The notes beneath the pieces were generated by a model. The model was not told the DNA's origin. It ran no database searches and saw only the letters and a list, made by a program, of their open reading frames with translations. The translations under genes were made by a program, and so were the position numbers. A DNA stretch of 31,213 nt from positions 1 to 31,213 of the forward strand of contig JBHLNZ010000036.1 in assembly GCA_048941015.1 (NCBI GenBank), in the 5' to 3' direction. The stretch is from Promethearchaeota archaeon (GTDB taxonomy: Archaea; Asgardarchaeota; Lokiarchaeia; Sigyniarchaeales; SOKP01). Positions 7,253 through 23,019 of the stretch are shown in pieces. Positions within the stretch are counted from its first letter, which is position 1; every line of letters begins with the position of its first letter.

Positions 7253-8428
7253 ATGACAATAAAATTATACTGGAAAGATCCTTATCAAAAAGAGTTTAAA
7301 ACTGAAGTTATTGGATTAAAGAAAAATGGCATCATATTAAATCAAACTTTGTTTTATCCACTGAGTGGCAATCAACAGAATGATAAAGGAATATTGACGA
7401 TTGGGGAACTTACGATTAATATTGAAAATGTAAGTCTAGAGAATGATGAAATTATCCATCATATCCCTTTAAAATCACTTAAAAGAGTGAAAATTGGTGA
7501 TCAAGTATTTGGAAAAATCGATTGGGACTATAGATATGGTTTAATGAAAGCTCATACATCACAACATTTATTTTCAGCATTAGCTAAAAAGAACTATGAT
7601 TTAGATACAGTAAGAGCTAATATCAATTTTGAGGATGTTTCTCTCCATTTTTCTCAAGAACTTAGCTATGAACAATTAAAAACTACTTTACAACAATTAA
7701 ATTTAATTTGTACTATAGATAATCGAAAAATTTCACCCAAATTATTATCAAATGAAGAAGCCAAAAAAAAATCTAATAAAATAAGGGGAAGTATTCCAAA
7801 AAAGGATCAAATTAGGGTAATTGAAACAGAAAATCTAGATTTAGTGTGTTGTGGAGGTACTCATGTGCAAAATTCTGATGAAATAGGCCCTGTGTTTTTG
7901 TATGAATTCAAGCGAGGAAAAGAATTAAAATACTTTATTGGAACTAAAGCAATAGAAAAAATATCTGAATTTAATACTAAAATCTTGGATATGGCCAATT
8001 CTATTGATGTTCCTATTGATATGATTGATGAGAAATTTAAAAGGCAAAATAATGAACTGCTTTCAATTCGGAACCAAAATAAAGATCAGTTATTACAAAT
8101 TTTAAATTTAAATATAGCTTATCCTAAAGAAGTTATAAATGGCGTATCAGTTTACGTATTTGATTATATTATTGATCATAAACTCTTAAAAAAATCATTT
8201 AATGATTATCCGAAAAATTCACTGCTATTGTTAATTACGGACGATAATAGGCTTAAAATTTATTCTAATAATGAGAAAGCAAATGCAGAACATATTTTAA
8301 AGACTCTTATAGCTAAATTTGGAGGGAAAGGTGGAGGTAATCCAAAATCAGCTCAAGGGTCGCTTGAGAATACTCCAGTAAATTTAATGAAAGAAATAAA
8401 TTTAATCTTAGAAGAATTTAACAAGTAG
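7253..8428 (+). CDS. alaX: Free-standing alanyl-tRNA editing protein (AlaX-L type, with C-terminal DHHA1/C-Ala domain)
   Basis: LYWKDPY start, TLFYP.SG.Q..D.G, Zn ligands HTSQH and CCGGTH, C-terminal GGKGGGNPKSAQG. Confidence 0.9.
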   Translation: MTIKLYWKDPYQKEFKTEVIGLKKNGIILNQTLFYPLSGNQQNDKGILTIGELTINIENVSLENDEIIHHIPLKSLKRVKIGDQVFGKIDWDYRYGLMKAHTSQHLFSALAKKNYDLDTVRANINFEDVSLHFSQELSYEQLKTTLQQLNLICTIDNRKISPKLLSNEEAKKKSNKIRGSIPKKDQIRVIETENLDLVCCGGTHVQNSDEIGPVFLYEFKRGKELKYFIGTKAIEKISEFNTKILDMANSIDVPIDMIDEKFKRQNNELLSIRNQNKDQLLQILNLNIAYPKEVINGVSVYVFDYIIDHKLLKKSFNDYPKNSLLLLITDDNRLKIYSNNEKANAEHILKTLIAKFGGKGGGNPKSAQGSLENTPVNLMKEINLILEEFNK

Positions 8429-8491: not shown

Positions 8492-10444
8492 TTATAACTC
8501 TTTTATAGATTTAAATAATTCTGAGAATTCTGAATCTTTCTTATAAAATATAGGTGGTTTACCGATAGGAGCATTAACCGTTCTCCATCCTCCAGTATAA
8601 ACATTCCCTGACCAAATATGAACCCAATCATCTTTAGGTAAAAAAACTTCCCATTGATCCATATTTGGTTTAATAACTGGAGCTATAAGTAGGTCGCGTC
8701 CAAATAGATATTGATACTTAATATTATATAATTCTGGATCATTTTCATAATGCAAAAAGCATCCTCTTATTGGTGGAATTCCATCTTCTTGGTAAGTTTT
8801 AGATAAATGAATCAAGTAGGGTTTAAGATGTAAATGAATCTTTACCATCTTTGATAAATGAATTAATGTTTCCTCATCAGAATCAAATTGCCAATTTACA
8901 TCAGGTCTATTCCCTTCATGAGTACGCATTAACATTGAAAATGTTGCCATCTCTGCAGAACGCATAAACAGTTCTTTCTCTCGTTTAAACTTTCCAGAAG
9001 TTGTATAACATCCGATATCAAAATGATAATAACCTATGCCACATAAGCCGATATTAATTGCTCCCGGAATAACTGAAGGAAGCCCTAATCTTTCATCCCA
9101 ATCAACACGCTGATCCCCTGAAAATTGCATAATAGCATATTTTGATGTTCCAGTAAATCCAGAACGTGCGAAAAAGATTACTTCACCAAGTAAATTTTCT
9201 TCCTTAATTGCATCATAATTGACTTTAGTCCAAGGAGTGGGAGATAAATTATGAAATTCTTCTCCTGAAATACCTGAAAAAAATGTTGCATCTGTTGGAA
9301 CATATTCTCCATAATCAACCATCCATCCTCCAAGACCTATTCCAATCATGTTTTTCTTAATCACAGATTTAATCCATTCAATAGCTTTAGGATTTGAAAA
9401 ATCTATCTGTGAAGCTAGAAAATCAGTCATCATTACAAGATAATCTTCACCTTCACGATTCTTAATACAATAGCCTTTATCTGAAGCCTCTTTATAAAGA
9501 TCTCCTTCAAGAGCAAGCATAGTGTTTATGTATCCTAAAAACTTAATGCCTTTATTATTCAATTCTTTAATATAATCTGGAAGGTTAGGGTAAATTTCTT
9601 CATCATATTTCCAATCCCAGAATAATTGTTTCCCAAAAGAGGTATATCTAATCCCCTGCCAATCTTGACACCATACTGCAGTAACTTTAATTCCATGTGC
9701 TAATGCTTTATCAATTTTTTCATCGACAATTTCAGGTCCTCCTTGGATTCCTAACCAAATTCCATCCAATGTCCATTCTGGCAACTTTGGTTGCAAACCA
9801 AGAAATTTATTTAGCTCTTTAACAACTTGAAGAAGTGTATCGTACTTTCCTATATATATCTCTTCTGGAATATTCCAAAGATACAATTCATGAAAACTTT
9901 CATTTTCAAAATTAAATTTTGAATAATGACTGCTTTCAACATGACAAAAATAATTATTAGTTGAAATGAAATTAGGTTGTGGATAATAAGTATGTTCTGA
10001 TCTAGAAAGTGGGCTAGCGTCTTCAACCCATATAGGTACCTTTTGTCCTCTCAAATTCAACTCTGAGAATTGTTCACCACATCCAAAAATAGCTTCATCT
10101 TCATCAGCCACTACTTTTATCCATAATCGATTAACTGAAGGATTATCACACTTAAATGAGATTAAAAGTTTTTCGTTCTTAATAAAAAACTCTACAACTA
10201 AACTTGTATTATTGAACTCAAATTCAAGAATAACTTGGTTATGAGTTTCAGAGAGCAATTTGTAATCCTTGAATTTAAATCTTTTCTGAATCTTTTCACT
10301 TATTCTAAAGCTATTATGATTTTGTTTGAATTTCCCAATCCCAATTCCTATCTCAAAACAAGGCTTTTTTGAAGAGTGAGAAAAAAAATTATAGTCATTA
10401 AAGTAGAGATTAAACCCTTCAGTATTTTGTTCGTATTTTATCAT
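8492..10444 (-). CDS. yihQ: GH31 glycosidase, YihQ/sulfoquinovosidase subfamily
   Basis: Motifs GCGEQFS.LNLRG, TYYPQP.F, LGIQGG, WCQDWQGIRYTSFGKQLFWDW, nucleophile GWMVDYGEY, acid/base SGDQRVDW, HFDIGCYT, MRTHEGNRP and QYLFGRDLLIAPV follow E. coli YihQ as recalled. Start moved from TTG 10459 to ATG 10444, which overlaps the upstream stop (ATGA) and follows GGAAGGT. Confidence 0.85.
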   Translation of the reverse strand: MIKYEQNTEGFNLYFNDYNFFSHSSKKPCFEIGIGIGKFKQNHNSFRISEKIQKRFKFKDYKLLSETHNQVILEFEFNNTSLVVEFFIKNEKLLISFKCDNPSVNRLWIKVVADEDEAIFGCGEQFSELNLRGQKVPIWVEDASPLSRSEHTYYPQPNFISTNNYFCHVESSHYSKFNFENESFHELYLWNIPEEIYIGKYDTLLQVVKELNKFLGLQPKLPEWTLDGIWLGIQGGPEIVDEKIDKALAHGIKVTAVWCQDWQGIRYTSFGKQLFWDWKYDEEIYPNLPDYIKELNNKGIKFLGYINTMLALEGDLYKEASDKGYCIKNREGEDYLVMMTDFLASQIDFSNPKAIEWIKSVIKKNMIGIGLGGWMVDYGEYVPTDATFFSGISGEEFHNLSPTPWTKVNYDAIKEENLLGEVIFFARSGFTGTSKYAIMQFSGDQRVDWDERLGLPSVIPGAINIGLCGIGYYHFDIGCYTTSGKFKREKELFMRSAEMATFSMLMRTHEGNRPDVNWQFDSDEETLIHLSKMVKIHLHLKPYLIHLSKTYQEDGIPPIRGCFLHYENDPELYNIKYQYLFGRDLLIAPVIKPNMDQWEVFLPKDDWVHIWSGNVYTGGWRTVNAPIGKPPIFYKKDSEFSELFKSIKEL

Positions 10445-11757
10445 TTTATTACCTTCCAACCTTTTATTTTAGCAAAAATCTCGAATGGTTTTATATAATC
10501 TCCATATACCACTGAGATATGATGGGCAATTCCATTTTGAATTATTTTATCCAATACAATTCTTATATTATCTTTAAATACAGTTTTTAGATAAGTTCCT
10601 TTAAGTTCTTTATCCATTGGAATTCCCTCTCCTTTTTGTAGGAAAATTCTATACTCTCCGGGAGCGTAATCAATTCTCAATAAGGAAATCTCACCTGGCT
10701 TCATAACAAAATCTGCTGTAACCCCTTTTCCTTCAGCAAAATAAGAATCCAATGATCTTACACACTTTTCATCCCATAAATCACAAGCAGCGACTCCACA
10801 GTGCCATAATAGCCCAAAACTTTCTTCGAAGTTTATCTGAGAAAAATCAGCTAGAAATGGGCTTCTTGCGCCTATTGCTTTATGCGCTAACATGGATAAA
10901 CTACCTAAAATATCTCCTTCACAAGTTAAGATTTTATCTTCTGCTTGTAATATTGACATTGCAGCACATGGTGAGATCCCAAAATCTGTAGCAAATTCTG
11001 GCCAACATCTAATCGCAATAGCATCTAAATTATGATCTCGTATAAATCTGTCAAATTTAGTTGTAAGTAAAGCTACTTTTTCTAATTGTTGGTTTGTTAT
11101 TCCTGATATATCAAAAAGAGATTTAATTTGTTGTTTTCTTTCGTTGATCTCATTATCACTTACTTCAAGGTTAAAAATTTCTCTTAATTCGAAATGATCC
11201 GCTAAAATTCCGATTTCTCTATATAAATCCAGCTCATCATAATCTAAGTTGAAAAATCCTTTCGCTCGATATCCAATAATGCCAATATGAGAAGATTTAA
11301 ATGATTTGAGTATTCTAATGGCATCTAACCAATCTAAATCTATTTCATCACCTATTACAATATGATAATTCTTTACACCAGCCTTATATAGATTACTCGC
11401 ATTTAGATTTATTCCACAAACAGAATTTAAGCGAATTTTACCTCCATCATAGGGTAATTCTTCTAATCCCCATAATAAAATTGGGCAACAAAGGACTTTA
11501 TATAATTCCAAAATTAAATGCCCAAGAGCAAAAGTTCCGCTAATACATACTAATCCATCAATCTGCTTCTCTACCAAAAGATTTGCCGCTTTTTGGGCGT
11601 CTTCGATTTCGATAATCAAATCCTCATTAATTATATATTCAATATCTTCTATTTTTTTAAGTTTTTCTTGTATTTTCTTATATATCTCTTCCGCTGCGAT
11701 ATAATCGAACGTTTTTCGAGCTAGACAGACTAAACCAATTTTTATAAATTGCTTCAG
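10441..11757 (-). CDS. L-fucose/L-arabinose isomerase-family protein, putative sulfoquinovose isomerase (SqvD/SftI-like), 438 aa
   Basis: Motifs RLNSVCG, AIRCWPEF, TCEGD (metal Glu), FLAD, WHCG and GIAHH. Frame extends 46 codons beyond the ORF call to a CTG at 11757, directly after an in-frame TAG and 5 nt after GGTGA, adding KQFIKIGLVCLARKTFD. Confidence 0.82.
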   Translation of the reverse strand: MKQFIKIGLVCLARKTFDYIAAEEIYKKIQEKLKKIEDIEYIINEDLIIEIEDAQKAANLLVEKQIDGLVCISGTFALGHLILELYKVLCCPILLWGLEELPYDGGKIRLNSVCGINLNASNLYKAGVKNYHIVIGDEIDLDWLDAIRILKSFKSSHIGIIGYRAKGFFNLDYDELDLYREIGILADHFELREIFNLEVSDNEINERKQQIKSLFDISGITNQQLEKVALLTTKFDRFIRDHNLDAIAIRCWPEFATDFGISPCAAMSILQAEDKILTCEGDILGSLSMLAHKAIGARSPFLADFSQINFEESFGLLWHCGVAACDLWDEKCVRSLDSYFAEGKGVTADFVMKPGEISLLRIDYAPGEYRIFLQKGEGIPMDKELKGTYLKTVFKDNIRIVLDKIIQNGIAHHISVVYGDYIKPFEIFAKIKGWKVIK

Positions 11758-11836
11758 CTAATTCACCATACTTGTTAATAATAAATAGTAATAATTAAAA
11801 AGCTATAAAGATTGTAAATATGGAAAGAAGTATTAG

Positions 11837-12889
11837 CTAAAATGAAAATATTTGAAGTAATCTAAAATTACCTACTAATGCTATTAATATCCCAAAAGCT
11901 ATTGAGAACAAGAATAGGTAAAAAGCAAAAACAGCTATTTTTATATGGAGTTTCCTTTTTTTTTCGTCTTTCGAAAATCTTTTTATTCCAAATATTGAAC
12001 CTACTAGTATAAAAATCATAGTTATCAACCCTGCTATTCCATGTAAAGAGTAAAATATGCTACCTCTAAGTAAAAAAGTTGAAATGCTCCAATAAGTAAA
12101 TGAAGTTAAAGAAAAAATAGCAAATAGTGTTGAGGTTAAAATATGGAAACGAAGTGATATATATCTGGGTAATTCCTTAAATTTAGTTGGTTTAGGTCCA
12201 AATTTTTGGCCAGAAATAAATGCTAATCCTCCAAACACAAAAGTAATACTAAATAAATACGCATGAGTAATCCATGATGAAAAATTAGTTCTCATTGCTT
12301 GATCGCTCCATCCTCTCTCTTCCCAAAATCCTATATAATCATAATTAACAAGTTCAATTTTCACAATCCATTTTACCCACTTATATCCATAATGGTCGGG
12401 AGCTACTAATCGAATGGGAAATCCATGTTTAGCTGGTAGGACTTCTCCATTCATCTTAAAAGCTAGTAAGATATTATTAGCAAATGCTTCTTTTACTGTT
12501 AATGAATCACTATAACTATCTTCTGCATAAAAAACAACATCATAAGCACTAGAATTCACTCCTGCCATGGATAATATATCTCTTAATGGAATACCTTCCC
12601 ATTCTGCTGTGCCAGACACGCCTTCTACACATGCTAAAGTTGCTATTTCTTTTTTTGAATCCAAACTTGTAAAGTTTGCATAGTCAAACATTAATTCTTG
12701 GTTTACATTACCAGTAACTTCTAATTTCCACTCACTTTCATTAATCAATGGAATTTCACCTTTTTGCAATACAAAAAATAGATCATTAGGAGTAATTATA
12801 TACCTTGAGAGATGAAAAGCGGAAACTATAATTAAAGGTGTACCTAATAAAAGAATCAAACCAATAAAATAGAGATTATTTCTCTTCAT
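11837..12889 (-). CDS. Sulfite-oxidase-family molybdopterin oxidoreductase (YedY/MsrP/YuiH-like) fused to a C-terminal 4-TM His-containing cytochrome-b-like domain
   Basis: N-terminal hydrophobic anchor, WKLEVTG.V, Mo-ligand Cys in TLACVEG, AEWEGIPL, MNGEVLP..HGFPIRLVAP..YGYKWVKW and GFWEERGW. Then four TM helices each with a His (ITHAY, RFHIL, SLHGI, KLHIK). Confidence 0.88.
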   Translation of the reverse strand: MKRNNLYFIGLILLLGTPLIIVSAFHLSRYIITPNDLFFVLQKGEIPLINESEWKLEVTGNVNQELMFDYANFTSLDSKKEIATLACVEGVSGTAEWEGIPLRDILSMAGVNSSAYDVVFYAEDSYSDSLTVKEAFANNILLAFKMNGEVLPAKHGFPIRLVAPDHYGYKWVKWIVKIELVNYDYIGFWEERGWSDQAMRTNFSSWITHAYLFSITFVFGGLAFISGQKFGPKPTKFKELPRYISLRFHILTSTLFAIFSLTSFTYWSISTFLLRGSIFYSLHGIAGLITMIFILVGSIFGIKRFSKDEKKRKLHIKIAVFAFYLFLFSIAFGILIALVGNFRLLQIFSF

Positions 12890-13006
12890 TCTTGTACTAA
12901 TAAGAAATAGGATTATTTAAAACACATTTTTATATTTATTAAGAACCACGTTAAAAAAGATCATAATAAATTTAGCAAATTCTTAAAAATAAGAGAATTA
13001 ATTTTT

Positions 13007-13675
13007 CTATGGAGAACCTAATTCCGTCTCATCCCAAGCTTCTTGAAACATTTTTAACCCTTTATCGGTGAATGGATGTTCAAAACTATCTCGATATACT
13101 TGAAATCCTGCCGTGACGATATCTGCACCCATAATTGCTGCCTCAACTATTTGTTTAGCATTTCTCAATGCAGCAACAATTATTTCAGTTTGAAAGTCAT
13201 AATTTCGATAAATTGTAATTATATCTGATAATAACTGAGTGCAATCAACTCCCGTAGCTTCTTGCCATCCAATGAATGGAGAACAATATGTCGTTCCGAT
13301 TCGACCTACTTGAAGCGCTTGAGATGCAGTAAAAACAAGCGTTACATTAACCTTGATTCCATCATCGATCAAACTTTTAGCAGCAATTAAACCTTGTTCA
13401 TTACAAGGAATCTTAATTACAAAATTTTCTGATAATATTGCTAAATTTTTTGCTTGCTGGATCATATCTTCAGCTTTTTTCAGGTGAGGATTAATCTCAA
13501 CTGAAATTGGAAATTTAATTGATTTAAATTCTTCCGCTAATTCCTTAATAACCTTATTGAAAGGTTTTCCTGAACTTTTAATATGTTTTGGATTCGAAGT
13601 AACACCATCAATCTTCCAGTTCTTAATTGCATATTTTATTTCATCAATCTTAGCACTATCTAGGAAATATTTCAC
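13007..13675 (-). CDS. Transaldolase (small FSA/TalC type), 6-deoxy-6-sulfofructose transaldolase (SqvA/SftT)-like
   Basis: GTG start. D6, DGVTSNP, E60, Schiff-base K88 (VIKIP), NVTLVF and F134. SPFIGW (W137, where F6P enzymes have Arg) and AALRN are the sulfo-type signatures. Confidence 0.85.
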   Translation of the reverse strand: MKYFLDSAKIDEIKYAIKNWKIDGVTSNPKHIKSSGKPFNKVIKELAEEFKSIKFPISVEINPHLKKAEDMIQQAKNLAILSENFVIKIPCNEQGLIAAKSLIDDGIKVNVTLVFTASQALQVGRIGTTYCSPFIGWQEATGVDCTQLLSDIITIYRNYDFQTEIIVAALRNAKQIVEAAIMGADIVTAGFQVYRDSFEHPFTDKGLKMFQEAWDETELGSP

Positions 13676-13768: not shown

Positions 13769-14722
13769 TTATGGTTTTTTATTTAAATTTTCCATAAAAA
13801 TAGCAGCATCTTTTAATGTTAGAGCCAAACCTTCCATCAATTTAACATATCTATCACTAATATAGATTTTGCCTTCGAAAAATCCCTTTTCACTCTTTTT
13901 TTTAATCTCCTCAATATTTAGAATCACCGATTTAGAAAGTTTTATACCTAAGGATTCTAATATAATCTCATCTTTGTTATTATTAAGAGCCTTATTAGAT
14001 ATTTTTGAAAATATCCAACGCGGACCTGTGCTATATTGTACTTTAGGAGGCTCTATTCTAACATCAATTATACTTATTATGCTTTTTATCAATTCCAGGA
14101 GGTATTTAAAACCCAAATTTATACTTATTTCAGGAGAAAAGTCAATTATTAATATTAATTTTATATTTTCAAGAATTATGAACTCTGAAAGAATCTTTTG
14201 GTTATCATCTAATATGAAAATAATATTTTTTATATTTTCGATATAACTTTTATTTAATTCGAGTTCTCCAAGAAATTTAACATAAATTTCGTTCGATAAG
14301 GAAGAGTATAATAATAAACCATCAGATGTGATCAAAGCTCCTCCTAAAACCTCTTTTTTTTGAAAAATTTCTCGGATATATTTTATTATTTTCTTTATGA
14401 TTATAGAAGATTCATAGGTTATGATTCCAAATTCTTCTTCTTGATCATCAAATAAAATGTTTGAGTCTTCACTAGAGAACTCAATATGAGTTATTTCAAA
14501 ATCTACTACTTGATAACCACGTATATCAAAGTGGGAATCCATAAACAATTGAAAGCTATGTTCGCAGATGTAATTTGAAGGAATTCCAATTGTGGTTAAG
14601 CTACCGCTCTGATTTATAAGTTTATATGGAATATTTATAAATTGGATGGTTTTACATTGCGGACATTCTATTCTTATTTTTTTAAATTGATTATCTTTTA
14701 ATTTGTTATTTTTTACAACCAT
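13769..14722 (-). CDS. Zn-ribbon plus roadblock/longin-like domain protein (Asgard-type)
   Basis: CPQC...CEH.F..FMD..F.IRGYQ.VD N-terminal module, acidic linker, then VLGGALITSDGLLLYSSL (roadblock/MglB-like beta hairpin) and an unknown C-terminal domain. Confidence 0.7.
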   Translation of the reverse strand: MVVKNNKLKDNQFKKIRIECPQCKTIQFINIPYKLINQSGSLTTIGIPSNYICEHSFQLFMDSHFDIRGYQVVDFEITHIEFSSEDSNILFDDQEEEFGIITYESSIIIKKIIKYIREIFQKKEVLGGALITSDGLLLYSSLSNEIYVKFLGELELNKSYIENIKNIIFILDDNQKILSEFIILENIKLILIIDFSPEISINLGFKYLLELIKSIISIIDVRIEPPKVQYSTGPRWIFSKISNKALNNNKDEIILESLGIKLSKSVILNIEEIKKKSEKGFFEGKIYISDRYVKLMEGLALTLKDAAIFMENLNKKP

Positions 14723-14889
14723 TTTTTTTAAAAAGAATTAATTCTTTCAAGAAACCTATTCTAAATATCTTAATTTTTCTATATATAATTTTACATAAGT
14801 GAGTTAATCTTCTTTTTTTTAATGATTAAATTTTTAAAATTTTAAGTGTGCAATAAAAATTTTTATTTTAAAAAAAATTGAATACTTTA

Positions 14890-15669
14890 ATGAGAATTAT
14901 TGATGCTCATACACATTTATTCGAAATTTCTGGTTATTTAGAAAAACTAATTGAAACAATGGATAAATGTGGAATAGAAAAATGCTGTTTAAGTGGTCTG
15001 GGTAAACTATTTAAATGTGCAGATAATCAAATGGTTAAATTAGCTTTCAAAAAATATCCTAACCGAATAATTGGTGCATATTTCATTCGTCCTGGTGTAA
15101 ATGAATTGCAAGATATTGAAAAGGCATATAGTGATGGCTTTAGGATGATAAAAGTGACTCTTCCTAGAAAGCCTTATGATGATGAACTATATTTTCCTTT
15201 ATGGGAAAAAGCCCAATATTTTAAGATGCCCATATTATTCCATACAGGAATAGTTACTATTGCTAAAAAAGTCCCAGAAGAAAGAATTTCATCATGGTTT
15301 ATGCATCCCATGAGGATCGAGACAATTGCGAATAGTTTTCCTAAATTAAAAATTATAATTGCTCATCTTGGAGTACATTGGAATAATGATGCAGCTGAAC
15401 TAATTCGAATGAAAAAAAATGTATATGCTGATCTTTCTGGTGCCCCAGAAGGTTGGAGGCTTAGAGCAGATCATATTGGTATGGATCACTGGCTATGGTG
15501 GCCTGGCGCATTTAAAAAGATAGTCTTTGGTACAGATGTAGTTTATAATCTTATTCCGCGAATAATTGAAGAAGATATGGCGCGTTTAAATAAATTTAAT
15601 ATAGATGCGGAAACACGCAATTTGATTTTTGCGGGGAATATTCTGAAAATGTTAGGTGAATATCAATAA
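14890..15669 (+). CDS. Amidohydrolase_2 family metal-dependent hydrolase
   Basis: Motifs IIDAHTH, PILFHTG, IIAHLG, VYADLSG, VFGTD and IFAGN. ATG 14890 preferred over TTG 14878. Stop overlaps the next start (TAATG). Confidence 0.88.
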   Translation: MRIIDAHTHLFEISGYLEKLIETMDKCGIEKCCLSGLGKLFKCADNQMVKLAFKKYPNRIIGAYFIRPGVNELQDIEKAYSDGFRMIKVTLPRKPYDDELYFPLWEKAQYFKMPILFHTGIVTIAKKVPEERISSWFMHPMRIETIANSFPKLKIIIAHLGVHWNNDAAELIRMKKNVYADLSGAPEGWRLRADHIGMDHWLWWPGAFKKIVFGTDVVYNLIPRIIEEDMARLNKFNIDAETRNLIFAGNILKMLGEYQ

Positions 15670-16517
15670 TGTTTAATAGGAAAGCCGAAGTTAGCTCACT
15701 AATGAAGTTATCTCCTCAAGAAGTAATACAGAGAGCTAGTGACCATCTTGTTGTCTGTGATACGCTAGAAAAATTACACAGAAAATTTGCAGAAGATATA
15801 TTCAATGAAATTAAAATAAATAATAATAAAAGAAAACCAACTAAAATTATTCTTCCTATAGGCCCAACTGGGCAATATCCTTATTTAGTTGATCTTTTAG
15901 AAAAATTTGAACTTGATCTATCAAACTGTTGGTTGTTTTTTATGGATGAATATTGTGATGAAGATGGATATGCACTTAGCGTTAATCATCCCTTAAGTTT
16001 TAAACGGATTGCTAAAACATTATTCCTACTTCCTTTAAAAGATAAGTTTGGCTTAAAAACATCTCAAGTCACTTTTCCTGAAGAAAAAAATATATCAAAA
16101 TTAGCTAATATTATTGAAAATTTAGGTGGTATAGATACTTGTTATGGAGGAATAGGTATACATGGTCATATAGCATTTAACGAACCTGAACCAAATATTA
16201 TCAATACAGACCCTCGTAAGGTTGCTTTAAATGATACAACTATTACTATAAACTGTATAAGGGCTAAGGTTGGAGGTAATCTTGAGAATTTTCCCAAAGA
16301 AGCATTTACTATAGGAATGAAACAAATTTTGAGATCTAATCGGATAAGATTATACTGTAGAAATGGATCTCCTTATGATTGGGCTAATACTATTCTTAGA
16401 ATCACTTTATTCGGCACTCCTGGGGATGATTATCCTGTTACTTGGATAAGAAATCATCCTAATTATGTGATTATAACAGACAAAGATACTTTAACAACAC
16501 CATTAAATCTATTGTAA
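15669..16517 (+). CDS. Glucosamine-6-phosphate deaminase/isomerase-family (NagB-like) protein
   Basis: Motifs ILPIGPTGQY, FFMDEY (catalytic Asp), GGIGIHGHIAFNEP (catalytic His/Glu), AFTIGMK and DYPVT. Translationally coupled to the amidohydrolase. Confidence 0.85.
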   Translation: MFNRKAEVSSLMKLSPQEVIQRASDHLVVCDTLEKLHRKFAEDIFNEIKINNNKRKPTKIILPIGPTGQYPYLVDLLEKFELDLSNCWLFFMDEYCDEDGYALSVNHPLSFKRIAKTLFLLPLKDKFGLKTSQVTFPEEKNISKLANIIENLGGIDTCYGGIGIHGHIAFNEPEPNIINTDPRKVALNDTTITINCIRAKVGGNLENFPKEAFTIGMKQILRSNRIRLYCRNGSPYDWANTILRITLFGTPGDDYPVTWIRNHPNYVIITDKDTLTTPLNLL

Positions 16518-16597
16518 AACATAAAAAAATCAAAAGAATATAAACCATAATAGCAATATCTATTATTATATTTAATTCAAATATTTAGGTCTACTTC

Positions 16598-17962
16598 ATG
16601 GACATTTTAAATAAAAAAAGTAAAAAGAAAACATTTAGTTCACTTTTTCGTCTTTATTTTATGATCTATTTCTGCTTTGGTATATTACCTGTCAATATTG
16701 ATAATCTTTTGATACTTCTTCCGGGAGCAACCAAAATTGGTATAGGAATTGTGATAGCTACGAGTTTACTCGGAGGAATGAGTGGCATGATAATATTCGG
16801 TTATTTTGGAGAAAAATTTATTGAACAAATTTCAAGGAAGAAGCTATTTATTTTTACAAACCTATCTTGGATATTTTCTTATGGAGTGATCGCATTCTCA
16901 CTGAATTATAATTTTTACTTAATTCTTTATATTACAGCTTCTATTGGTACAGGAGCATTTTTACCAATCGGTTTTTCTATTATTAGTGATTTATTTCCAC
17001 CCCATGAAAGAGGAAAGAAATATGGAGCTATGCAATTTAGCTTAGCTCTAGGAAGTGGAATGGGAATAATCTTTGGTGGTTTAATGGGTACCTACTTAAG
17101 TTTTTATGGGTGGAGAATAGCATATGGCATAGGTGCCCTTTTAGGATTCATTGTTTTATTAACATATATTTTCAAAGGAATTGACCCTGAAAGAGGCTCT
17201 GCTGAACCTGAATTTAATAACTTGAAAGGAAATTTTAGTTATACTTACAAATTAACTCTAAAAAATATTGTTGAATTGTTTAAAATAAAATCAGTTATGG
17301 CACTTTTAATTTATATATTATTTTATGGTGTAGCTAGTTCTACTTTGGGAAATTGGGGAATTTTTTACTTAACCTCGAAAATAAATGATCCAAATGCTGG
17401 ATTATATGGAACAACTATATATCTTTTAGCGGGATTGGGAATCCTATTTGGGGCTATAATTGGTGGAAAATTAGGAGATCGCTATTTCTATTCAGGGAAA
17501 ATTAAAGGGAGAATAATTATATCCCTTTTCGGTTTAATAATTGGCGTAATTATGATTTTAGTATTTTATATGCTTCCTTTCTTTACAGAAAATACCCTTC
17601 AAATAATTTTCTCGTGGATATTTTTCATTAGTTTGGGTTTTTTAGGATACTCTTTTTCCTCTTTTTCTACCGGAAACCAATTTGCGCTCTATTCGGAAGT
17701 GTGTATTCCTGAGTTAAGAAGTTCAACAAATGCATTAAATGGTATAATGGTCAATATTGGTGGAATTATTGGTAATTTACTACTTTCTTCATTAATTGAA
17801 CGCGATATTTCTCTCCTTCCATTATCAATATTAACTGTTTTACTAGTTTGGCTATTTGGAGCTTCTTTTTGGATAATTACATATATTTATTATCCAAAAG
17901 AATTAAAGGAATGTAGAGAAATCCTAGAGCTTAGAAGGATTGAAATAGAAAAGGGAAGATAA
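16598..17962 (+). CDS. MFS transporter
   Basis: About 12 TM segments. Motifs ISDLFPPHERGK, GWRIAY, DPERGSAEPE and GGKLGDR. Confidence 0.9.
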   Translation: MDILNKKSKKKTFSSLFRLYFMIYFCFGILPVNIDNLLILLPGATKIGIGIVIATSLLGGMSGMIIFGYFGEKFIEQISRKKLFIFTNLSWIFSYGVIAFSLNYNFYLILYITASIGTGAFLPIGFSIISDLFPPHERGKKYGAMQFSLALGSGMGIIFGGLMGTYLSFYGWRIAYGIGALLGFIVLLTYIFKGIDPERGSAEPEFNNLKGNFSYTYKLTLKNIVELFKIKSVMALLIYILFYGVASSTLGNWGIFYLTSKINDPNAGLYGTTIYLLAGLGILFGAIIGGKLGDRYFYSGKIKGRIIISLFGLIIGVIMILVFYMLPFFTENTLQIIFSWIFFISLGFLGYSFSSFSTGNQFALYSEVCIPELRSSTNALNGIMVNIGGIIGNLLLSSLIERDISLLPLSILTVLLVWLFGASFWIITYIYYPKELKECREILELRRIEIEKGR

Positions 17963-17972
17963 AAAAATAACG

Positions 17973-20603
17973 CTAGGATAAGTTATTAATTAAATCAAAT
18001 AATGATTTTACTTCAATATTATTTAAAATATTTTCTTTTGTAAAATTATTTTCCAGATCTTTTATTCTTATCTTTCTAATGCTTATAACTCGTGATCCAT
18101 TTGGCTCCATAGAAAAGAAGTTATCAGAAGCGATGAAATCAAAGAGATTAGAATCGATGAAAACATAAAAAGCTATTTTTTTAGTTTTAATTATAAGTTT
18201 GACTTCCTCAAAATCTTTAGATATATTTACAAATTCGAAACTTAATCCGGGATTTTCAATATTAAATTTTTTTGGAGCATCAAAAAAGCGAAAACCGTAA
18301 TTTAATTCTTTCTCATTAGATTGTTTATTTTTTAAATTATAAGATATAACAGTATTATGTAAATTCTTCTTTAGTTCTTCTTTATCACTTAGATCTATAG
18401 TTCCAACCAATTTTGAGTAACAAGGTAATATTTTGGAATCAAATGCTCCTTGCATTAATAATTTACTTTCTGAATTCCATATTTTCCATTCCAAAATTAT
18501 CTCACACATTGTTTTTAAATCATTTATTATCCAAAATTCTATTTTTTTTTCACTTTCATTAACACTAGGAAAAAGTGGTTTGTAAAACCTTTTGGCAAAA
18601 TAGTGAAGTGCCTTCCAACGACCATAATAATCAATAGAACTCCAACTTGCAACTGGCCAACAATCATTTAATTGCCAAAATAGAGCCCCCATGCAATGAT
18701 TATTATTACGATTGCGGCGCCAATGCTCTACTCCATATTCAATAGCTTCAGCTTGAGTTATTTGAGAAAGTATTATTTGGTTTTCAAATTTTTTGGGGAT
18801 TGAAAATCTTCGCTTCATATATCTCATTATTTTTTTATTACCTGAAGAATTTTTCTGATGATTTTCCATTATTGGAGAATAAAAATCAAATTGATTGTTG
18901 GGGCAAAAAGTCTCTATCGTTTTCATTGATGGAAAGGATTCAAATCCAAATTCTGACATGAAACGGGAAAAAAATGTTCGATAAGATTGAAAACTTTTAT
19001 AATGATGCCATACAGCCCAATAATGAGAATCTCCTTTATTTTGATCATTTGAATCTAAATTACCTAAATTATCATTTATAAAACCATTAGATGGAGAACT
19101 TGGCCAATAAGAACGAGAGGGATCATATTCTTTCACTAATTTTGGTAAAATTCTCTCAAATATCTTGATATATCCCTCTTTAAACTCATTTATTACTTGA
19201 CTGTCCGAAATTCCACTTTCAAACAAGAGTCCTCGCCATAATTGTTCAATCTCATTATTTCCACACCAAAATGCAAGACTAGGATGTATTCTTAACCTTT
19301 TAATATTTTGAATAAATTCTACTTGAAGCGATTTAATAAACTCTTCATAAGGTGGATAAACGGCACATGCAAATGGAAAATCTTGCCATACCAAAATTCC
19401 TAATTCGTCGCATAAATCGTAAAATATAGTATCTTCATAGATCCCTCCACCCCATACTCTGATCATATTCATGTTTGCTAATTTAGCATTTTCAAGATTG
19501 TTTAAATAAAGCCCCATTCTTTTACCTCTTGGTATAAAGCTGTCTATCGGTATCCAATTTGCTCCTTTAGCAAACAGAGGAATTCCATTTAATTGAAAAT
19601 AAAAGGTCTCCCCCCATTTATCGGGAATTGTAACTAACCTTATCTCTCTAATTCCTATTTTCTGGTAATATTCTTCGATTACATTTTCTTTTAAAATAGA
19701 AATCTTTAATTCATAAAGATTGGGAATACCTAAATCATGCGTCCACCATAGATAAGGATATTCAATATCGAATTCAACTAACTCTAAATTTTGAGAGATC
19801 TTTTTAATTTTTTCTAATTTTCGCCCATCTGGTTCCATAAGCTCAACTTGGATTTCATAACTCTTATTTTGGAGAGCTTTTAAATCAGCATCTATTTCGA
19901 TATTTAATTGAACATTAACAGATTCTACTCCATTTGAAGAAAACTCATTCAAATCTTTAATTTTGAAAGGATCTTTAAAATACTTAAAATTGTAAATAGG
20001 ATACACAGAAAGAATTCTTAAATTATCATACCCTATTAATTCAACAGATTGCCAAATTCCTATGTCAGGAAGTTTTGGTCCCCAATCCCAACCATGTGAA
20101 TATTGAGCTTTACGAATATATGGAACTCCAGGGATATCATCATGTCCTGTAGTTAAATTAATGCCATATTTCTCGATTTTATTTTTTGCCATTTTGGTTG
20201 GGCTTTGAATAACAACTTCAAGCTTATTTTTATTCTCTTTTAATAGGTCTTTTACATTGAATTGATAAGTTACAAACATATTAGAAGTTGAACCAATTAA
20301 TTCATTGTTTAAATAAATATCAGCAAAAGTATCAACTCCATCAAATTGCAATAGCAATTTATTATGACTTAAGAATTCAGGACTAAGATCAAATTCTAAT
20401 ACATATTTCCATTCTGATTCATAAACCCATGATACCTTATGTTCATTTAATCCATAAAAGGGATCTTCTATTATCCTATTCTCAATTAAGACCTCAAAAA
20501 CAGAGCCTGGAACTTGACTCTTTACTTTGATATTTTTTTCCTTCTGAAATAATTCCCATTCGCCATTTAATGATATTCTTTCAACTTTTTTAATAAATAT
20601 CAA
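17973..20603 (-). CDS. GH2 beta-mannosidase
   Basis: TTG start. Motifs FDGVDT.A, RKAQYSHGWDWGP, WWTHDLG.P.LY, FAKGANWIP.D, NMIRVWGGGIYE, WQDFPFAC, WCGNNE (acid/base), RFMSEFGF (nucleophile) and WQLNDCWP..SWSSIDY. Confidence 0.93.
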   Translation of the reverse strand: MIFIKKVERISLNGEWELFQKEKNIKVKSQVPGSVFEVLIENRIIEDPFYGLNEHKVSWVYESEWKYVLEFDLSPEFLSHNKLLLQFDGVDTFADIYLNNELIGSTSNMFVTYQFNVKDLLKENKNKLEVVIQSPTKMAKNKIEKYGINLTTGHDDIPGVPYIRKAQYSHGWDWGPKLPDIGIWQSVELIGYDNLRILSVYPIYNFKYFKDPFKIKDLNEFSSNGVESVNVQLNIEIDADLKALQNKSYEIQVELMEPDGRKLEKIKKISQNLELVEFDIEYPYLWWTHDLGIPNLYELKISILKENVIEEYYQKIGIREIRLVTIPDKWGETFYFQLNGIPLFAKGANWIPIDSFIPRGKRMGLYLNNLENAKLANMNMIRVWGGGIYEDTIFYDLCDELGILVWQDFPFACAVYPPYEEFIKSLQVEFIQNIKRLRIHPSLAFWCGNNEIEQLWRGLLFESGISDSQVINEFKEGYIKIFERILPKLVKEYDPSRSYWPSSPSNGFINDNLGNLDSNDQNKGDSHYWAVWHHYKSFQSYRTFFSRFMSEFGFESFPSMKTIETFCPNNQFDFYSPIMENHQKNSSGNKKIMRYMKRRFSIPKKFENQIILSQITQAEAIEYGVEHWRRNRNNNHCMGALFWQLNDCWPVASWSSIDYYGRWKALHYFAKRFYKPLFPSVNESEKKIEFWIINDLKTMCEIILEWKIWNSESKLLMQGAFDSKILPCYSKLVGTIDLSDKEELKKNLHNTVISYNLKNKQSNEKELNYGFRFFDAPKKFNIENPGLSFEFVNISKDFEEVKLIIKTKKIAFYVFIDSNLFDFIASDNFFSMEPNGSRVISIRKIRIKDLENNFTKENILNNIEVKSLFDLINNLS

Positions 20604-20608
20604 CTCTT

Positions 20609-21409
20609 TTATATTAAATATTTGAAAAAGTTATCTTGAACCATCCAGCTTCCTAAAAATCTATCTCTCTTTCTTTTATTCCAAATATTATCTATATTAT
20701 TTATACCATCATAGAGTTTGGTTAGGAGATCTTTTTTAACAGGAAATTGTTCATGAGAAGGATAAATCTCCTCAATCTTTTCATTATCATAAATATCAAT
20801 TAATTTTTGGATACTTCTTAGAAATGAAGGAAATTTTCTACGTTTGGGTAAATACATTGAACCATAATGGGCAGTGTCTCCTGTGAAAAGCTCTTTTGTA
20901 TTCGAAACCAGACTAATTGAGCCCTCAGAATGTCCTGGAGTATAATAAACTTTCAAAGTAATATCACCCAGATCAATTAGGTCTCCATCATTGAGTGATT
21001 TAACTGACTTAGCTGCTTCAAGTTTGAAATTTTTTACCTTATAATACTTCATATAATCACTGTTTGAATCTTTCATGAATGATAGATCAAAAGGGATGGT
21101 AATGTTTTTACTCTCGTTTCGATGAATCATAATCTCTTTAAATTCATAATTAGCTCCTATATGATCGAAGTGAGAATGAGTATTTACAATTAAAAGAGGT
21201 TTTTCCTTTATTATTTCATCTATTATAGGTTTTAAGGGAAATAATCCACATCCGGTATCAATTAAAAGGGCTTTTTTATTTCCTAATATTAGAAATAAGT
21301 TTACATATTTTGTATGAAATCGAGGTTCAATTTTATCTAACCTCTCTCTGATGATATATAAATAATCTTTCTGCCTTATTACTTCATACCAATTTTTACT
21401 ATTTTGCAT
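20609..21409 (-). CDS. Metallo-beta-lactamase-fold hydrolase
   Basis: Motifs LLIDTG, NTHSHFDHIG (HxHxDH), TPGHSEGS, LFTGD and YPSH. Lies 5 bp upstream of the GH2 gene. Confidence 0.92.
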   Translation of the reverse strand: MQNSKNWYEVIRQKDYLYIIRERLDKIEPRFHTKYVNLFLILGNKKALLIDTGCGLFPLKPIIDEIIKEKPLLIVNTHSHFDHIGANYEFKEIMIHRNESKNITIPFDLSFMKDSNSDYMKYYKVKNFKLEAAKSVKSLNDGDLIDLGDITLKVYYTPGHSEGSISLVSNTKELFTGDTAHYGSMYLPKRRKFPSFLRSIQKLIDIYDNEKIEEIYPSHEQFPVKKDLLTKLYDGINNIDNIWNKRKRDRFLGSWMVQDNFFKYLI

Positions 21410-21524
21410 AATTCTAGCATTATTTCCTCTATACTCAAAATAAGACTTTAATAAATATACTGAATTCTTTAAAAGGATAAAAAATTTGGGAATATAATCA
21501 AAATAAACATACCCTATTCAAAAA

Positions 21525-22937
21525 ATGTCAGAAATAAATTATCTTCCTTATGAACCAAGAATGGAACCTACAGCACCAGGTACTCTTAATATTAAAAGGA
21601 CTGTCTTGATCTCTTTATCCTTTTTTACAGTACTTTTAGCATGGGGTTTCTTTAACTTCAAGGTACCACTTTTGCTTGATGAAGTATTAGGAACATTCTT
21701 TTTAAAAGATATAGTTAAAGGGGCAATAATGGCTATTGATAACTTAGTTGCTGTGTTTGTGCAACCTTTTTTTGGGGATCTTAGTGATCGAACAAAAAGT
21801 AAAATAGGACGCAGAATGCCATATATTATTATCGGTACTACATCTTCCGCAATCTTCTTTATTTTTATTCCTTGGGTACGTATCCTAGCTGGTTTAGTCC
21901 TCATTATATTTTTATTTGATCTTGCTATGTCAATATATCGTTCAGCATCTATTGCTATTTTACCAGATTACACAAGAGAAGAAGTATATTCCAAAGGAAG
22001 TGCGATACAACAATTTATTGCTAATATGGGGGGATTATTTGCATTTGTAATCCCCATCATCCTTGGGATAGTACAAACTAGTTTATCAGCTGAATGGTTT
22101 GATGCTTTAGGATTCTTAATAGTTGCAATTTTAATGTTATTATTAGTCATCTTTCAATTTTTAAAAGTCAAAGAGACTCCAACAGGAGATAGTTTACTTA
22201 AAACTACAACGAAAAAATTAGAAATTGACCCTAATACATTTAAAGTTCATGAATCTGAAGAATTGGATGCTGATACCAAAAGAGGATCATACAGTAATGC
22301 AATCAGAATTGTTAAGACACATAAGGATTTTCTTTTCTTCCTATTAACGGTTTTTTTCATGTATTTAGCTTTTGCATCTGTAGAAGCATTTTTCTCTAGC
22401 TTTAGTGTAGATTATTTTGATATCTCAGAAGGTCAAGCAGGTATTTTATTTTTAGCATATTCTGGCCCAATGATTTTGTCGGCTTATTTTGTTGGCATGT
22501 TAGGACAAAGTAAAAAAGTAGGAAGGAAAAAAGCTGTAAAAATCTTCCTTACCTGGTTAATTCTTTCAGTAGCTATTATGGCCTTTATTCTCGTTCCATT
22601 AACTTACCATGACCATAATGCACTATTAACAATATTGATATTATCATTGATAGCTATTCCATGGATGGGTTTCATTGTAAATAGCTTTCCTATTCTCTGG
22701 GCACTAGCACCTAAAGGTAAGACTGGTATTTACACGGGAATTTATTATACATTCAATCAATCAGCATATACTTTAGCACCAATTATTTTTGGAGGATTAT
22801 TATCTATATTTAGGTTTTTAGGTGATTATAGGTATATTACAATGTTCCCTTTTATCCTTGTATTAATAATAATTGCATATCTATTATTCTTCAAAGTTAA
22901 AGGCGGCGAAACAAACACAACAATAAAAAACAATTAA
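21525..22937 (+). CDS. MFS transporter (glycoside/sugar, GPH/SLC45-like)
   Basis: About 12 TM segments. AIDN.....VQPFFGDLSDRTKSKIGRRMPYI motif and GIYTGIYY. Confidence 0.9.
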   Translation: MSEINYLPYEPRMEPTAPGTLNIKRTVLISLSFFTVLLAWGFFNFKVPLLLDEVLGTFFLKDIVKGAIMAIDNLVAVFVQPFFGDLSDRTKSKIGRRMPYIIIGTTSSAIFFIFIPWVRILAGLVLIIFLFDLAMSIYRSASIAILPDYTREEVYSKGSAIQQFIANMGGLFAFVIPIILGIVQTSLSAEWFDALGFLIVAILMLLLVIFQFLKVKETPTGDSLLKTTTKKLEIDPNTFKVHESEELDADTKRGSYSNAIRIVKTHKDFLFFLLTVFFMYLAFASVEAFFSSFSVDYFDISEGQAGILFLAYSGPMILSAYFVGMLGQSKKVGRKKAVKIFLTWLILSVAIMAFILVPLTYHDHNALLTILILSLIAIPWMGFIVNSFPILWALAPKGKTGIYTGIYYTFNQSAYTLAPIIFGGLLSIFRFLGDYRYITMFPFILVLIIIAYLLFFKVKGGETNTTIKNN

Positions 22938-23019
22938 ATTCTTATTTCTTTTAAATTTTTTCATAAGAATAAGAAATTCTATCATTATTTTTTTAAAATT
23001 GAAAAAAAAATAAGGTACT

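Follow-up and report, generated by a model that had tools for sequence, protein, structure and literature searches.

The minus strand of a 31,213-nucleotide stretch (the window) from a Promethearchaeota archaeon (contig JBHLNZ010000036.1 of assembly GCA_048941015.1, positions 1 to 31,213) carries a gene cluster that probably encodes the core of transaldolase-type sulfoglycolysis (sulfo-TAL) in an Asgard archaeon. The analysis shows which families the proteins belong to, which residues they conserve, and how their genes are arranged and co-occur; the substrates and the fate of 3-sulfolactaldehyde (SLA) we infer. The four co-oriented genes proposed in the first-pass annotation are all real and intact: a transaldolase (13007..13675; 222 aa, GTG start), a membrane Mo-oxidoreductase (11837..12889), a fucose-isomerase-family gene (10441..11757; 438 aa, CTG start) and a YihQ-type GH31 glycosidase gene (8492..10444; 650 aa, ATG start). 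The translational coupling suggested for the last two is also seen, the TGA stop of the isomerase gene and the ATG of the GH31 gene overlapping as ATGA.

Sulfoquinovose (SQ), a sulfur sugar abundant in the membranes of plants and algae, is produced at ~10 Pg per year. A conserved Asgard sulfo-TAL core would bring a second domain of life into the turnover of SQ in marine sediments. If Asgard archaea do degrade SQ, they might ferment it or use it in syntrophy, and the archaea most closely related to eukaryotes would thereby take part in the organosulfur cycle. According to a 2026 review, every pathway known to break down SQ is bacterial, with none characterised in archaea or eukaryotes (PMC12890257). 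Our literature search found no publication on archaeal sulfoglycolysis, in line with the earlier remark that no characterised Asgard example was known.

The nearest known system is the sulfo-TAL pathway of Priestia megaterium DSM 1804 (sqv) and P. aryabhattai SOS1 (sft), in which the same three core enzyme families are clustered and which shares with the archaeal locus a small decameric-type transaldolase with a W-A-R motif (~65% identical). The Asgard system differs in its archaeal host, in its distant isomerase (219 bits, cut-off 700) and in a GH31 enzyme with Gln for Arg301. It also differs in that its cluster has no mutarotase, that no SLA dehydrogenase, SLA reductase or exporter was found in its genome, and that a probably unrelated Mo-oxidoreductase gene separates the transaldolase gene from the isomerase gene.

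The three candidate sulfoglycolytic enzymes

Judged by sequence, the transaldolase is a clear relative of sulfofructose transaldolase (SF-TAL). Its best solved match in the PDB is the P. megaterium enzyme (BmSF-TAL, 8BC3; 299 bits, ~65% identity); the T. maritima transaldolase reaches only 177 bits. The resemblance to SqvA/SftT noted in the first-pass annotation holds letter for letter: the N-terminus and the segments FPISVEINPHL and TEIIVAALRN are identical in the alignment with the P. megaterium enzyme. BmSF-TAL has a catalytic triad of D6, E61 and K89 and a sugar-orienting Asn/Ser pair, and its W-A-R motif orients the sulfonate where ordinary transaldolases have the phosphate Arg/Ser (PMC11659671). 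In the Asgard protein D6, E60 and K88, as well as N110 and S132, align with these residues, and the W-A-R motif is kept: W137 (in SPFIGW), and A169 and R171 (in AALRN). All three motif residues are present in 50 out of 50 sampled Asgard sequences; R137/S169 is found in about 22 out of 30 sampled ordinary transaldolases (TALs). The generic fsa/talC model gives a score of 192, below its cut-off of 246. In the phylogenetic tree the protein lies inside the SF-TAL supergroup, which a long branch with full support (0.56; SH-aLRT 100) divides from the ordinary TALs. The Asgard SF-TALs form a sister clade to the sampled bacterial ones and do not branch from among them, so the tree does not decide on horizontal acquisition. 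Position 30 is Lys, a residue shared by 48 out of 50 Asgard transaldolases; most bacterial SF-TALs have Arg here, but 12 out of 60 have Lys.

The fucose-isomerase-family protein is a candidate SftI/SqvD-like SQ isomerase, distant from bacterial SftI. It has a Pfam Fucose_iso_C match, and its sole NCBIfam match is SftI (NF048012; 218.6 bits, E 1e-64), well below the equivalog cut-off of 700. The isomerase encoded beside an SF-TAL gene in SAR324 likewise stays under this cut-off (310 bits) and is ~29% identical to the Asgard protein. The coding region extends beyond the mechanically called ORF, with 46 conserved N-terminal residues in frame; the CTG start (11757) directly follows an in-frame TAG and is preceded by GGTGA 7 nt upstream. 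Because of this conserved N-terminus, and because the same CTG-start arrangement is present in the nearest relative (L009), we place the gene at 11757..10441. Among 251 sampled Asgard genomes the isomerase gene is carried by 11 out of 12 genomes with an SF-TAL, but only by three out of the other 239. The SftI/SqvD-like assignment made earlier is thus backed by the sole family match, the coupling to the GH31 gene and the co-occurrence with SF-TAL, but not by the curated cut-off.

The GH31 protein is a YihQ-type glycosidase with a sulfonate pocket that, from its alignment, is altered. Its score against the YihQ model NF007746 (PRK10426) is 778.6 bits (cut-off 553), the next model being alpha-xylosidase (227 bits), and it matches E. 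coli YihQ (5AED) with 652 bits and 42% identity over the full length. As in E. coli YihQ and the Agrobacterium SQase (GH31 subfamily 13) the catalytic Asp pair is kept, nucleophile D405 and acid/base D472 aligning with YihQ without gaps; Q262, Q288, W304, Y508 and H537 are kept as well. Characterised GH31 sulfoquinovosidases have an Arg-Trp-Tyr motif (within Q/E-RWY), Arg301 being one of three sulfonate-pocket residues (PMC8006165, PMC12780224). Unlike these enzymes, the Asgard protein has Gln in place of Arg301, with W304 and Y508 present. The YihQ-like label of the first-pass annotation therefore passes the curated model, but does not extend to the sulfonate-binding Arg.

This substitution is not confined to one protein: Gln301 is found in nine out of nine cluster-linked GH31s of related Asgard loci. 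Among the 120 closest homologues and the query, position 301 is Gln in 59 and Arg in 57, and 12 have the full canonical motif. Gln-type and Arg-type proteins separate into subclades of their own, in which many positions co-vary, and the Gln301 clade casts doubt on the Arg-Trp-Tyr motif as a safe sulfoquinovosidase marker in metagenomes. The query also has an Arg two residues after the acid/base (GDQRVDW), shared by 29 out of 58 members of the Gln-type clade, the nearest half only.

Proposed pathway and alternative readings

In the proposed pathway the GH31 enzyme would free SQ by hydrolysis of alpha-sulfoquinovosides, e.g. the sulfoquinovosyl glycerol that derives from the sulfolipid of algae or plants. 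The SftI-like isomerase would then turn SQ into 6-deoxy-6-sulfofructose. On the transaldolase, Lys88 would carry the Schiff base; SLA would leave, and glyceraldehyde 3-phosphate would take up the dihydroxyacetone unit and become fructose 6-phosphate. In the source genome an unlinked enzyme (one of the aldehyde:ferredoxin oxidoreductase, AOR, paralogues or generic aldehyde dehydrogenases) would have to deal with SLA, or it would have to be excreted. At the genomic level, the family matches of the transaldolase, GH31 and isomerase support the earlier proposal that this archaeon converts SQ to fructose 6-phosphate and SLA. In sequence comparisons the proteins did not group with ordinary TALs, alpha-glucosidases or fucose isomerases, nor did the contig prove bacterial.

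An unlikely alternative is that the cluster acts not on SQ but on another C6-anionic glucose derivative, e.g. a 6-O-sulfated glucoside degraded via fructose 6-sulfate. The shorter Gln301 of the GH31 and Lys30 of the transaldolase would make room for a longer substituent, and both are near-constant features of the Asgard proteins (Gln301 in all cluster-linked GH31s, with Gln-type and Arg-type enzymes in distinct subclades; Lys30 in 48 out of 50 transaldolases). A sulfatase gene is moreover found in seven out of 22 TAL loci. However, the W-A-R motif is the same as in the enzyme solved with sulfofructose, and Lys30 also occurs in 12 out of 60 bacterial SF-TAL-type proteins. On another contig the same operon position is apparently taken by a GH31 with the canonical R-W-Y residues (P0072, the sole 676-aa GH31 recorded for an ENA contig of 85,012 bases), and the sulfatase gene lies on the opposite strand, grouped with a separate glycan module.

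Real SQ catabolism could instead serve to recycle SQ-containing glycans, those of the cell itself or of other archaea, and not the sulfolipid of phototrophs; we consider this reading rather improbable. YihQ-type enzymes are alpha-sulfoquinovosidases, but the SQ of the Sulfolobus glycan is beta-linked. The cluster does lie beside GH2 beta-mannosidase-like and NagB-like genes, and SQ is described in N-glycans of some archaea, the Sulfolobales (PMC11284389, PMC12890257); however, the portion of the glycan report consulted mentions no SQ in the N-glycans of a cultured Asgard archaeon (PMC11284389).

It is very improbable that the three proteins are ordinary carbohydrate enzymes (a housekeeping transaldolase of the pentose phosphate pathway, an alpha-glucosidase and an isomerase of the fucose/arabinose type) brought together by chance. 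Most homologues are publicly annotated as 'alpha-glucosidase' (GH31) or 'transaldolase', and the source genome has no ordinary transaldolase besides the SF-TAL-type gene, so a housekeeping role would be compatible with the gene count. But this transaldolase has the SF-TAL signature and not the R137/S169 phosphate signature, and about 158 out of 251 sampled Asgard genomes do without any TAL. The ordinary TAL of relatives, where present, is a separate gene about 40% identical to the SF-TAL type; two relatives have both, so these are two distinct genes. The YihQ-specific score of the GH31, far from the next model, and the tight co-occurrence of SF-TAL and isomerase also argue against chance neighbours.

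Conservation across Asgard genomes and handling of sulfolactaldehyde

Over 20 Promethearchaeota genomes, a closed one among them, share the genes of the sulfo-TAL cluster, and synteny across relatives confirms a TAL/isomerase/GH31 core: the TAL gene is accompanied by the SftI-like gene in 16 out of 22 Asgard loci and by a GH31 gene in nine. The TAL cluster lies on the closed chromosome of the cultured Ca. Lokiarchaeum ossiferum, which has TAL, YihU-like, transporter and isomerase genes as well as a Gln-type GH31. Since the core is found in many Promethearchaeota genomes including this closed one, it is not a binning artefact, and the Asgard origin proposed for the contig is upheld. That the contig is bacterial and misbinned is scarcely credible, even for a metagenome assembly of 144 contigs (95% complete, 5% estimated contamination) and a pathway otherwise known from bacteria only: its G+C content (30%) matches the bin, it carries archaeal-type AlaXM, a thiolase with an HMG-CoA synthase/DUF35 fusion, and a hypothetical protein specific to Asgard archaea, and an independent MAG has its genes in the same order throughout (72-91% identity). 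With the pathway genes present in Ca. L. ossiferum, a conserved core would also point to SQ as a definite substrate that can be tested on these archaea, which are very difficult to cultivate.

Other Asgard clusters resemble the one described here in their TAL, isomerase and Gln-type GH31 (55-90% identity) and in a flanking amidohydrolase/NagB-like/GH2 island. They differ in having a plausible SLA-converting enzyme after the transaldolase, where the source genome has the Mo-oxidoreductase. In relatives this slot holds a YihU-like reductase (five loci, including Ca. L. ossiferum) or a ferredoxin plus an AOR; the relative G104 has the Mo-oxidoreductase here, like the source genome, and in G012 the slot is empty. 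The SLA-converting and transport genes sit in the cluster in relatives; for example, on one 85-kb contig a full operon comprises genes for a GPH transporter, TAL, a YihU-like reductase, the isomerase and a GH31, the latter apparently the R-W-Y protein P0072.

A complete sulfo-TAL pathway comprises a YihU-type SLA reductase or an SLA dehydrogenase together with a sulfonate exporter, a combination not found in the source genome. Searches of this genome (95% complete) for a YihU-like reductase, for an orthologue of the AOR that is linked to TAL elsewhere and for an AEC-type transporter all came back negative, and thus yielded neither an SLA-handling enzyme nor a dedicated exporter. It does encode 11 AOR paralogues and two aldehyde dehydrogenases, both generic and in arginine/ornithine gene contexts. 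More broadly, we tentatively suggest that Asgard archaea may be unrecognised SQ degraders of anoxic sediments, using a sulfonate pocket without the canonical Arg and differing by lineage in the fate of SLA (reduction to DHPS, ferredoxin-linked AOR oxidation to sulfolactate, or no dedicated enzyme).

The Mo-oxidoreductase and other neighbours

The Mo-oxidoreductase, listed as a cluster gene in the first-pass annotation, is real and in position, but its membership is not conserved: it adjoins TAL only in the source genome and G104 (two out of 22 related loci). It has an N-terminal anchor, a sulfite-oxidase-fold domain (Pfam Oxidored_molyb, 139 bits) and a four-TM DUF4079 domain with four His. 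This order of Mo domain and His-bearing membrane domain is that of a fused MsrP-MsrQ; unlike MsrPQ/SorA-type molybdoenzymes, the protein lacks a dimerisation domain and a clear twin-arginine signal, and its NCBIfam equivalog scores are far below cut-off (SorA 104 bits, MsrP 80 bits). Its best PDB match is SorA. Matches are found in 33 out of 61 family genomes (13 full-length, 48-77% identity), some without SF-TAL, and none of eight other copies examined adjoins cluster genes. As it is present in genomes without SF-TAL and its eight other copies lie away from the cluster, the protein is probably a bystander and not a pathway member; most likely it is an envelope enzyme resembling MsrPQ or sulfite oxidase, with no relation to the pathway.

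Upstream of the transaldolase gene, after a 93-nt gap, an Asgard-specific hypothetical protein is encoded on the same strand (13769..14722). Neither Pfam nor NCBIfam gave a match for it, the ESM Atlas clusters nearest to it come exclusively from Promethearchaeota, and of the relatives only the nearest conserves it. A divergent module on the plus strand (14878..17962) encodes an Amidohydro_2 protein, a NagB-like protein and an MFS transporter. The amidohydrolase/NagB-like pair is near TAL in eight out of 22 related loci, and also in L096; the module thus recurs beside the transaldolase, and its link to the pathway is putative. Glycan-degrading genes (GH2 beta-mannosidase-like and NagB-like) also lie beside the cluster, and in four of the seven TAL loci with a sulfatase gene this gene is directly and divergently beside TAL.

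Gene order and archaeal origin of the contig

Four intact genes, all on the minus strand, occupy positions 8492–13675 of the window: a transaldolase gene (13675..13007; 222 aa, GTG start), a molybdopterin oxidoreductase gene (12889..11837; 350 aa), a fucose-isomerase-family gene (11757..10441; 438 aa with an apparent CTG start) and a GH31 glycosidase gene (10444..8492; 650 aa). The isomerase stop codon overlaps the GH31 start codon in the sequence ATGA. The co-orientation and the coupling of the last two genes are thus as the first-pass annotation had described them, and the bacterial contig that it had named as an objection to its reading is not what we find. The window is the complete contig C87 (31.2 kb, 30% G+C) of a 3.59-Mb MAG (144 contigs, 95% complete), and we regard it as archaeal because its base composition is that of its bin, because it encodes an archaeal-type AlaXM, an HMG-CoA-synthase/DUF35 fusion with a thiolase and a hypothetical protein whose closest clusters are all from Promethearchaeota, and because 13 genes on both sides of the cluster are found again, at 72–91% identity, in an independent assembly. 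Close to the contig end, a 433-aa protein (29577–30878) has a C-terminal TIR domain and is possibly encoded by a defence or signalling gene.

Transaldolase, isomerase and glycosidase

Sequence comparisons support the reading of this cluster as the putative core of an Asgard archaeal sulfoglycolysis route of the sulfo-TAL type. The first-pass annotation had proposed such a route, with a sulfofructose transaldolase (SF-TAL) and a YihQ-like GH31 enzyme, and at the genomic level its proposal is supported by the assignments of the transaldolase, the isomerase and the GH31 protein.

Among all solved structures, the transaldolase is best matched by the Priestia megaterium SF-TAL (8BC3; 299 bits), as compared with 177 bits for the best ordinary transaldolase structure and ∼75 for fructose-6-phosphate aldolases; its score with the generic fsa/talC model does not reach the cut-off. 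A summary of cryo-EM work (in PMC11659671) gives D6/K89/E61 as the SF-TAL catalytic triad, N111 and S133 as orienting the sugar and a W-A-R motif as orienting the sulfonate, and all of these key residues are kept in the window protein (D6, E60, K88, N110, S132, W137, A169 and R171). We aligned 50 Asgard and 61 bacterial SF-TAL-type proteins with 30 ordinary transaldolases: W137/A169/R171 is found in all 50 Asgard and nearly all 61 bacterial proteins, whereas the ordinary transaldolases mostly carry R137/S169 (∼22 of 30). Position 30 is lysine in 48 of the 50 Asgard proteins; among the bacterial ones it is arginine in 47 and lysine in 12. In a maximum-likelihood tree, a branch of 0.56 (SH-aLRT 100) parts an SF-TAL supergroup, to which the window protein belongs, from ordinary transaldolases; within it one bacterial sequence, from SAR324, falls inside the Asgard clade (SH-aLRT 35), whose sister group is the sampled bacterial clade (support 93).

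A related locus in a SAR324 bacterium MAG (L027, JANQGX010000038.1) has an SF-TAL that is 68% identical to that of the window and has an Asgard sequence as its sister; adjoining it are a bacterial-type sulfoquinovose isomerase (SftI; 310 bits) and an aldehyde:ferredoxin oxidoreductase (AOR). Gene transfer from archaeon to bacterium, or wrong binning of the contig, could account for this placement.

The mechanically called isomerase ORF begins at a TTG (11619), but 46 N-terminal residues common to all homologues lie in frame upstream of it. The gene appears to start at a CTG right behind an in-frame TAG stop, with GGTGA 7 nt before the CTG (11755–11771, minus strand). The same stop-CTG arrangement, with TAA as the stop, is found in an independent assembly of the nearest relative (locus L009, ∼8210–8240), and it is this recurrence together with the conserved residues that leads us to predict a protein of 438 aa. 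ATG-GTG-xxx comes before the stop, and GGTGA, which falls within these codons, is the likely ribosome-binding site; in other homologues the start codon is ATG. The full-length protein matches a single NCBIfam family, SftI (218.6 bits, E 1e-64), far under the equivalog cut-off of 700, which must be narrow, since the SAR324 isomerase adjoining an SF-TAL (310 bits) fails it as well. Pfam assigns a fucose-isomerase C-terminal domain, and a search of solved structures by sequence gave no match for this isomerase.

At 778.6 bits the GH31 protein exceeds the cut-off of 553 in the curated NCBI model for YihQ; it scores 652 bits against E. coli YihQ structures and is 42% identical to that protein. It keeps the nucleophile D405, the acid/base D472 and residues Q262, Q288, W304, Y508 and H537 (E. 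coli numbering), with glutamine in place of arginine at position 301. Arg301 is described as a member of an Arg301-Trp304-Tyr508 sulfonate pocket in PMC8006165 and of a Q/E-RWY motif in PMC12780224. The glutamine is no sequencing slip, as it is found in all nine GH31 genes of Asgard transaldolase loci, in the single GH31 copy of Ca. Lokiarchaeum ossiferum and in 59 proteins (57 have arginine) of a set made of the query and its 120 closest database homologues, mostly Asgard. Gln-type and Arg-type proteins form separate subclades with many co-varying positions. Within the homologue set, Tyr508 is replaced by phenylalanine in 43 of the 57 Arg-type proteins, and just 12 proteins have the full canonical motif.

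The main rival explanation, which we consider improbable, is that Gln-type enzymes use a related but different C6-anionic sugar. For a Gln-type enzyme acting on sulfoquinovose, a candidate for compensating the missing Arg301 is an arginine two residues past the acid/base (GDQRVDW), found in Gln-type proteins only (29 of 58). By analogy, the Gln-type pocket may also be an Arg-free sulfonate pocket, since sulfolactaldehyde (SLA) reductase holds the sulfonate without direct arginine contact (PMC8006165). Bacterial Gln-type GH31 genes were seen in two contexts, one adjoining a GPH transporter gene and the other 5 kb from PfkB/Ldh_2/DHDPS genes. Some public records name single Asgard GH31 proteins 'sulfoquinovosidase'; our literature search on Asgard archaea with sulfoquinovose, sulfoquinovosidase or sulfoglycolysis, with most subscription journals outside its coverage, returned glycosylation papers only.

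Related loci and the position after the transaldolase

SF-TAL-type genes 65–90% identical to that of the window are found in many genomes under Promethearchaeota or other Asgard names; in one of them, Ca. Lokiarchaeum ossiferum, the gene lies on a closed chromosome. Exact-sequence look-ups with the transaldolases of the window and of Ca. L. ossiferum matched no database record. In a sample of 251 genomes drawn evenly across the phylum, the SF-TAL type is present in 12, an ordinary transaldolase alone (∼40% identical) in 81 and no transaldolase in ∼158; two of the 12 have both types. An SftI-like gene accompanies the SF-TAL type in all but one of these 12 genomes (11 of 12) and is found in three of the other 239 (related genomes are non-independent samples, and the pattern covers at least three families).

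Within 10 kb, 16 of 22 SF-TAL loci have an SftI-like gene and nine have a GH31 gene. A YihU-like beta-hydroxyacid dehydrogenase gene adjoins the transaldolase gene in five loci (its protein reaches 155 bits with the sulfolactaldehyde reductase model and 162 bits with tartronate-semialdehyde reductase). In eight loci a transporter gene of the auxin-efflux-carrier type (AEC) is immediately upstream of the isomerase gene, and GPH-family transporters (the YihO/YihP family) are found in seven. One 85-kb contig has a compact operon of GPH transporter, transaldolase, YihU-like reductase, isomerase and GH31 genes; this GH31 is most probably canonical, because public records have only one 676-aa GH31 for an ENA contig of 85,012 bases (P0072), and that protein has the R-W-Y motif. 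A Hermodarchaeota contig has transaldolase, ferredoxin, AOR, isomerase and Gln-type GH31 genes. With either a YihU-like reductase or ferredoxin and AOR in different loci, the slot after the transaldolase behaves as a variable position for a putative SLA-disposing enzyme; it is empty in one genome (G012), where the transaldolase and isomerase genes adjoin directly. In a Promethearchaeia MAG, six tandem GPH-family (MFS_2, YihO/YihP-like) transporter paralogues are immediately upstream of the SF-TAL gene (L013:337–9862).

In the window the slot is occupied by the Mo-oxidoreductase gene (12889..11837). An N-terminal anchor in its product is followed by a sulfite-oxidase-fold domain (139 bits to Pfam; best equivalogs SorA, 104 bits, and MsrP, 80 bits, both well under cut-off) and by a DUF4079 domain of four helices that carries four histidines; the protein resembles a fused MsrP–MsrQ or a membrane sulfite dehydrogenase. 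Matches are found in 33 of 61 family genomes (13 full-length, 48–77% identity), some of them without the SF-TAL type. We treat it as a bystander and no pathway enzyme, because it adjoins the transaldolase gene only in the window and the nearest relative (G104, the genome of L009), because none of eight other copies examined is next to transaldolase or isomerase genes, and because it occurs without SF-TAL. Its slot position had made it a candidate SLA enzyme, which we rejected as unsupported given this distribution, the sulfite-oxidase fold and the predicted membrane anchor. In four sister genomes (G022:C57, G116:C21, G153:C39 and G007:C5) the match to the orthologue is interrupted by one in-frame stop codon (TAG, TGA or TAA), which may reflect a pseudogene, a split gene or an error of assembly.

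When the window genome was searched, neither a YihU-like gene nor an AEC transporter was found, and none of its 11 AOR paralogues is an orthologue of the AOR linked to transaldolase genes in relatives (38% identity for the best hit). Its two aldehyde dehydrogenases were rejected as SLA enzymes, being generic and in amino-acid catabolism contexts. Compared with the bacterial sulfo-TAL model, the window differs in its Arg-less GH31 pocket and distant isomerase, and in its genome no enzyme could be recognised that would act on the sulfonated C3 product.

Flanking island

An island around the cluster (14878–20603 and 20609–24102) is conserved in several relatives. It encodes Amidohydro_2, NagB-like deaminase/isomerase, MFS, GH2 beta-mannosidase-like, metallo-beta-lactamase-fold, GPH-like MFS and enolase-superfamily (MR_MLE) dehydratase proteins, and in other relatives additionally a sulfatase and a GFO/IDH/MocA dehydrogenase. 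A second module, for a glycan (possibly sulfated) or a sugar acid, is one possible reading of this island.
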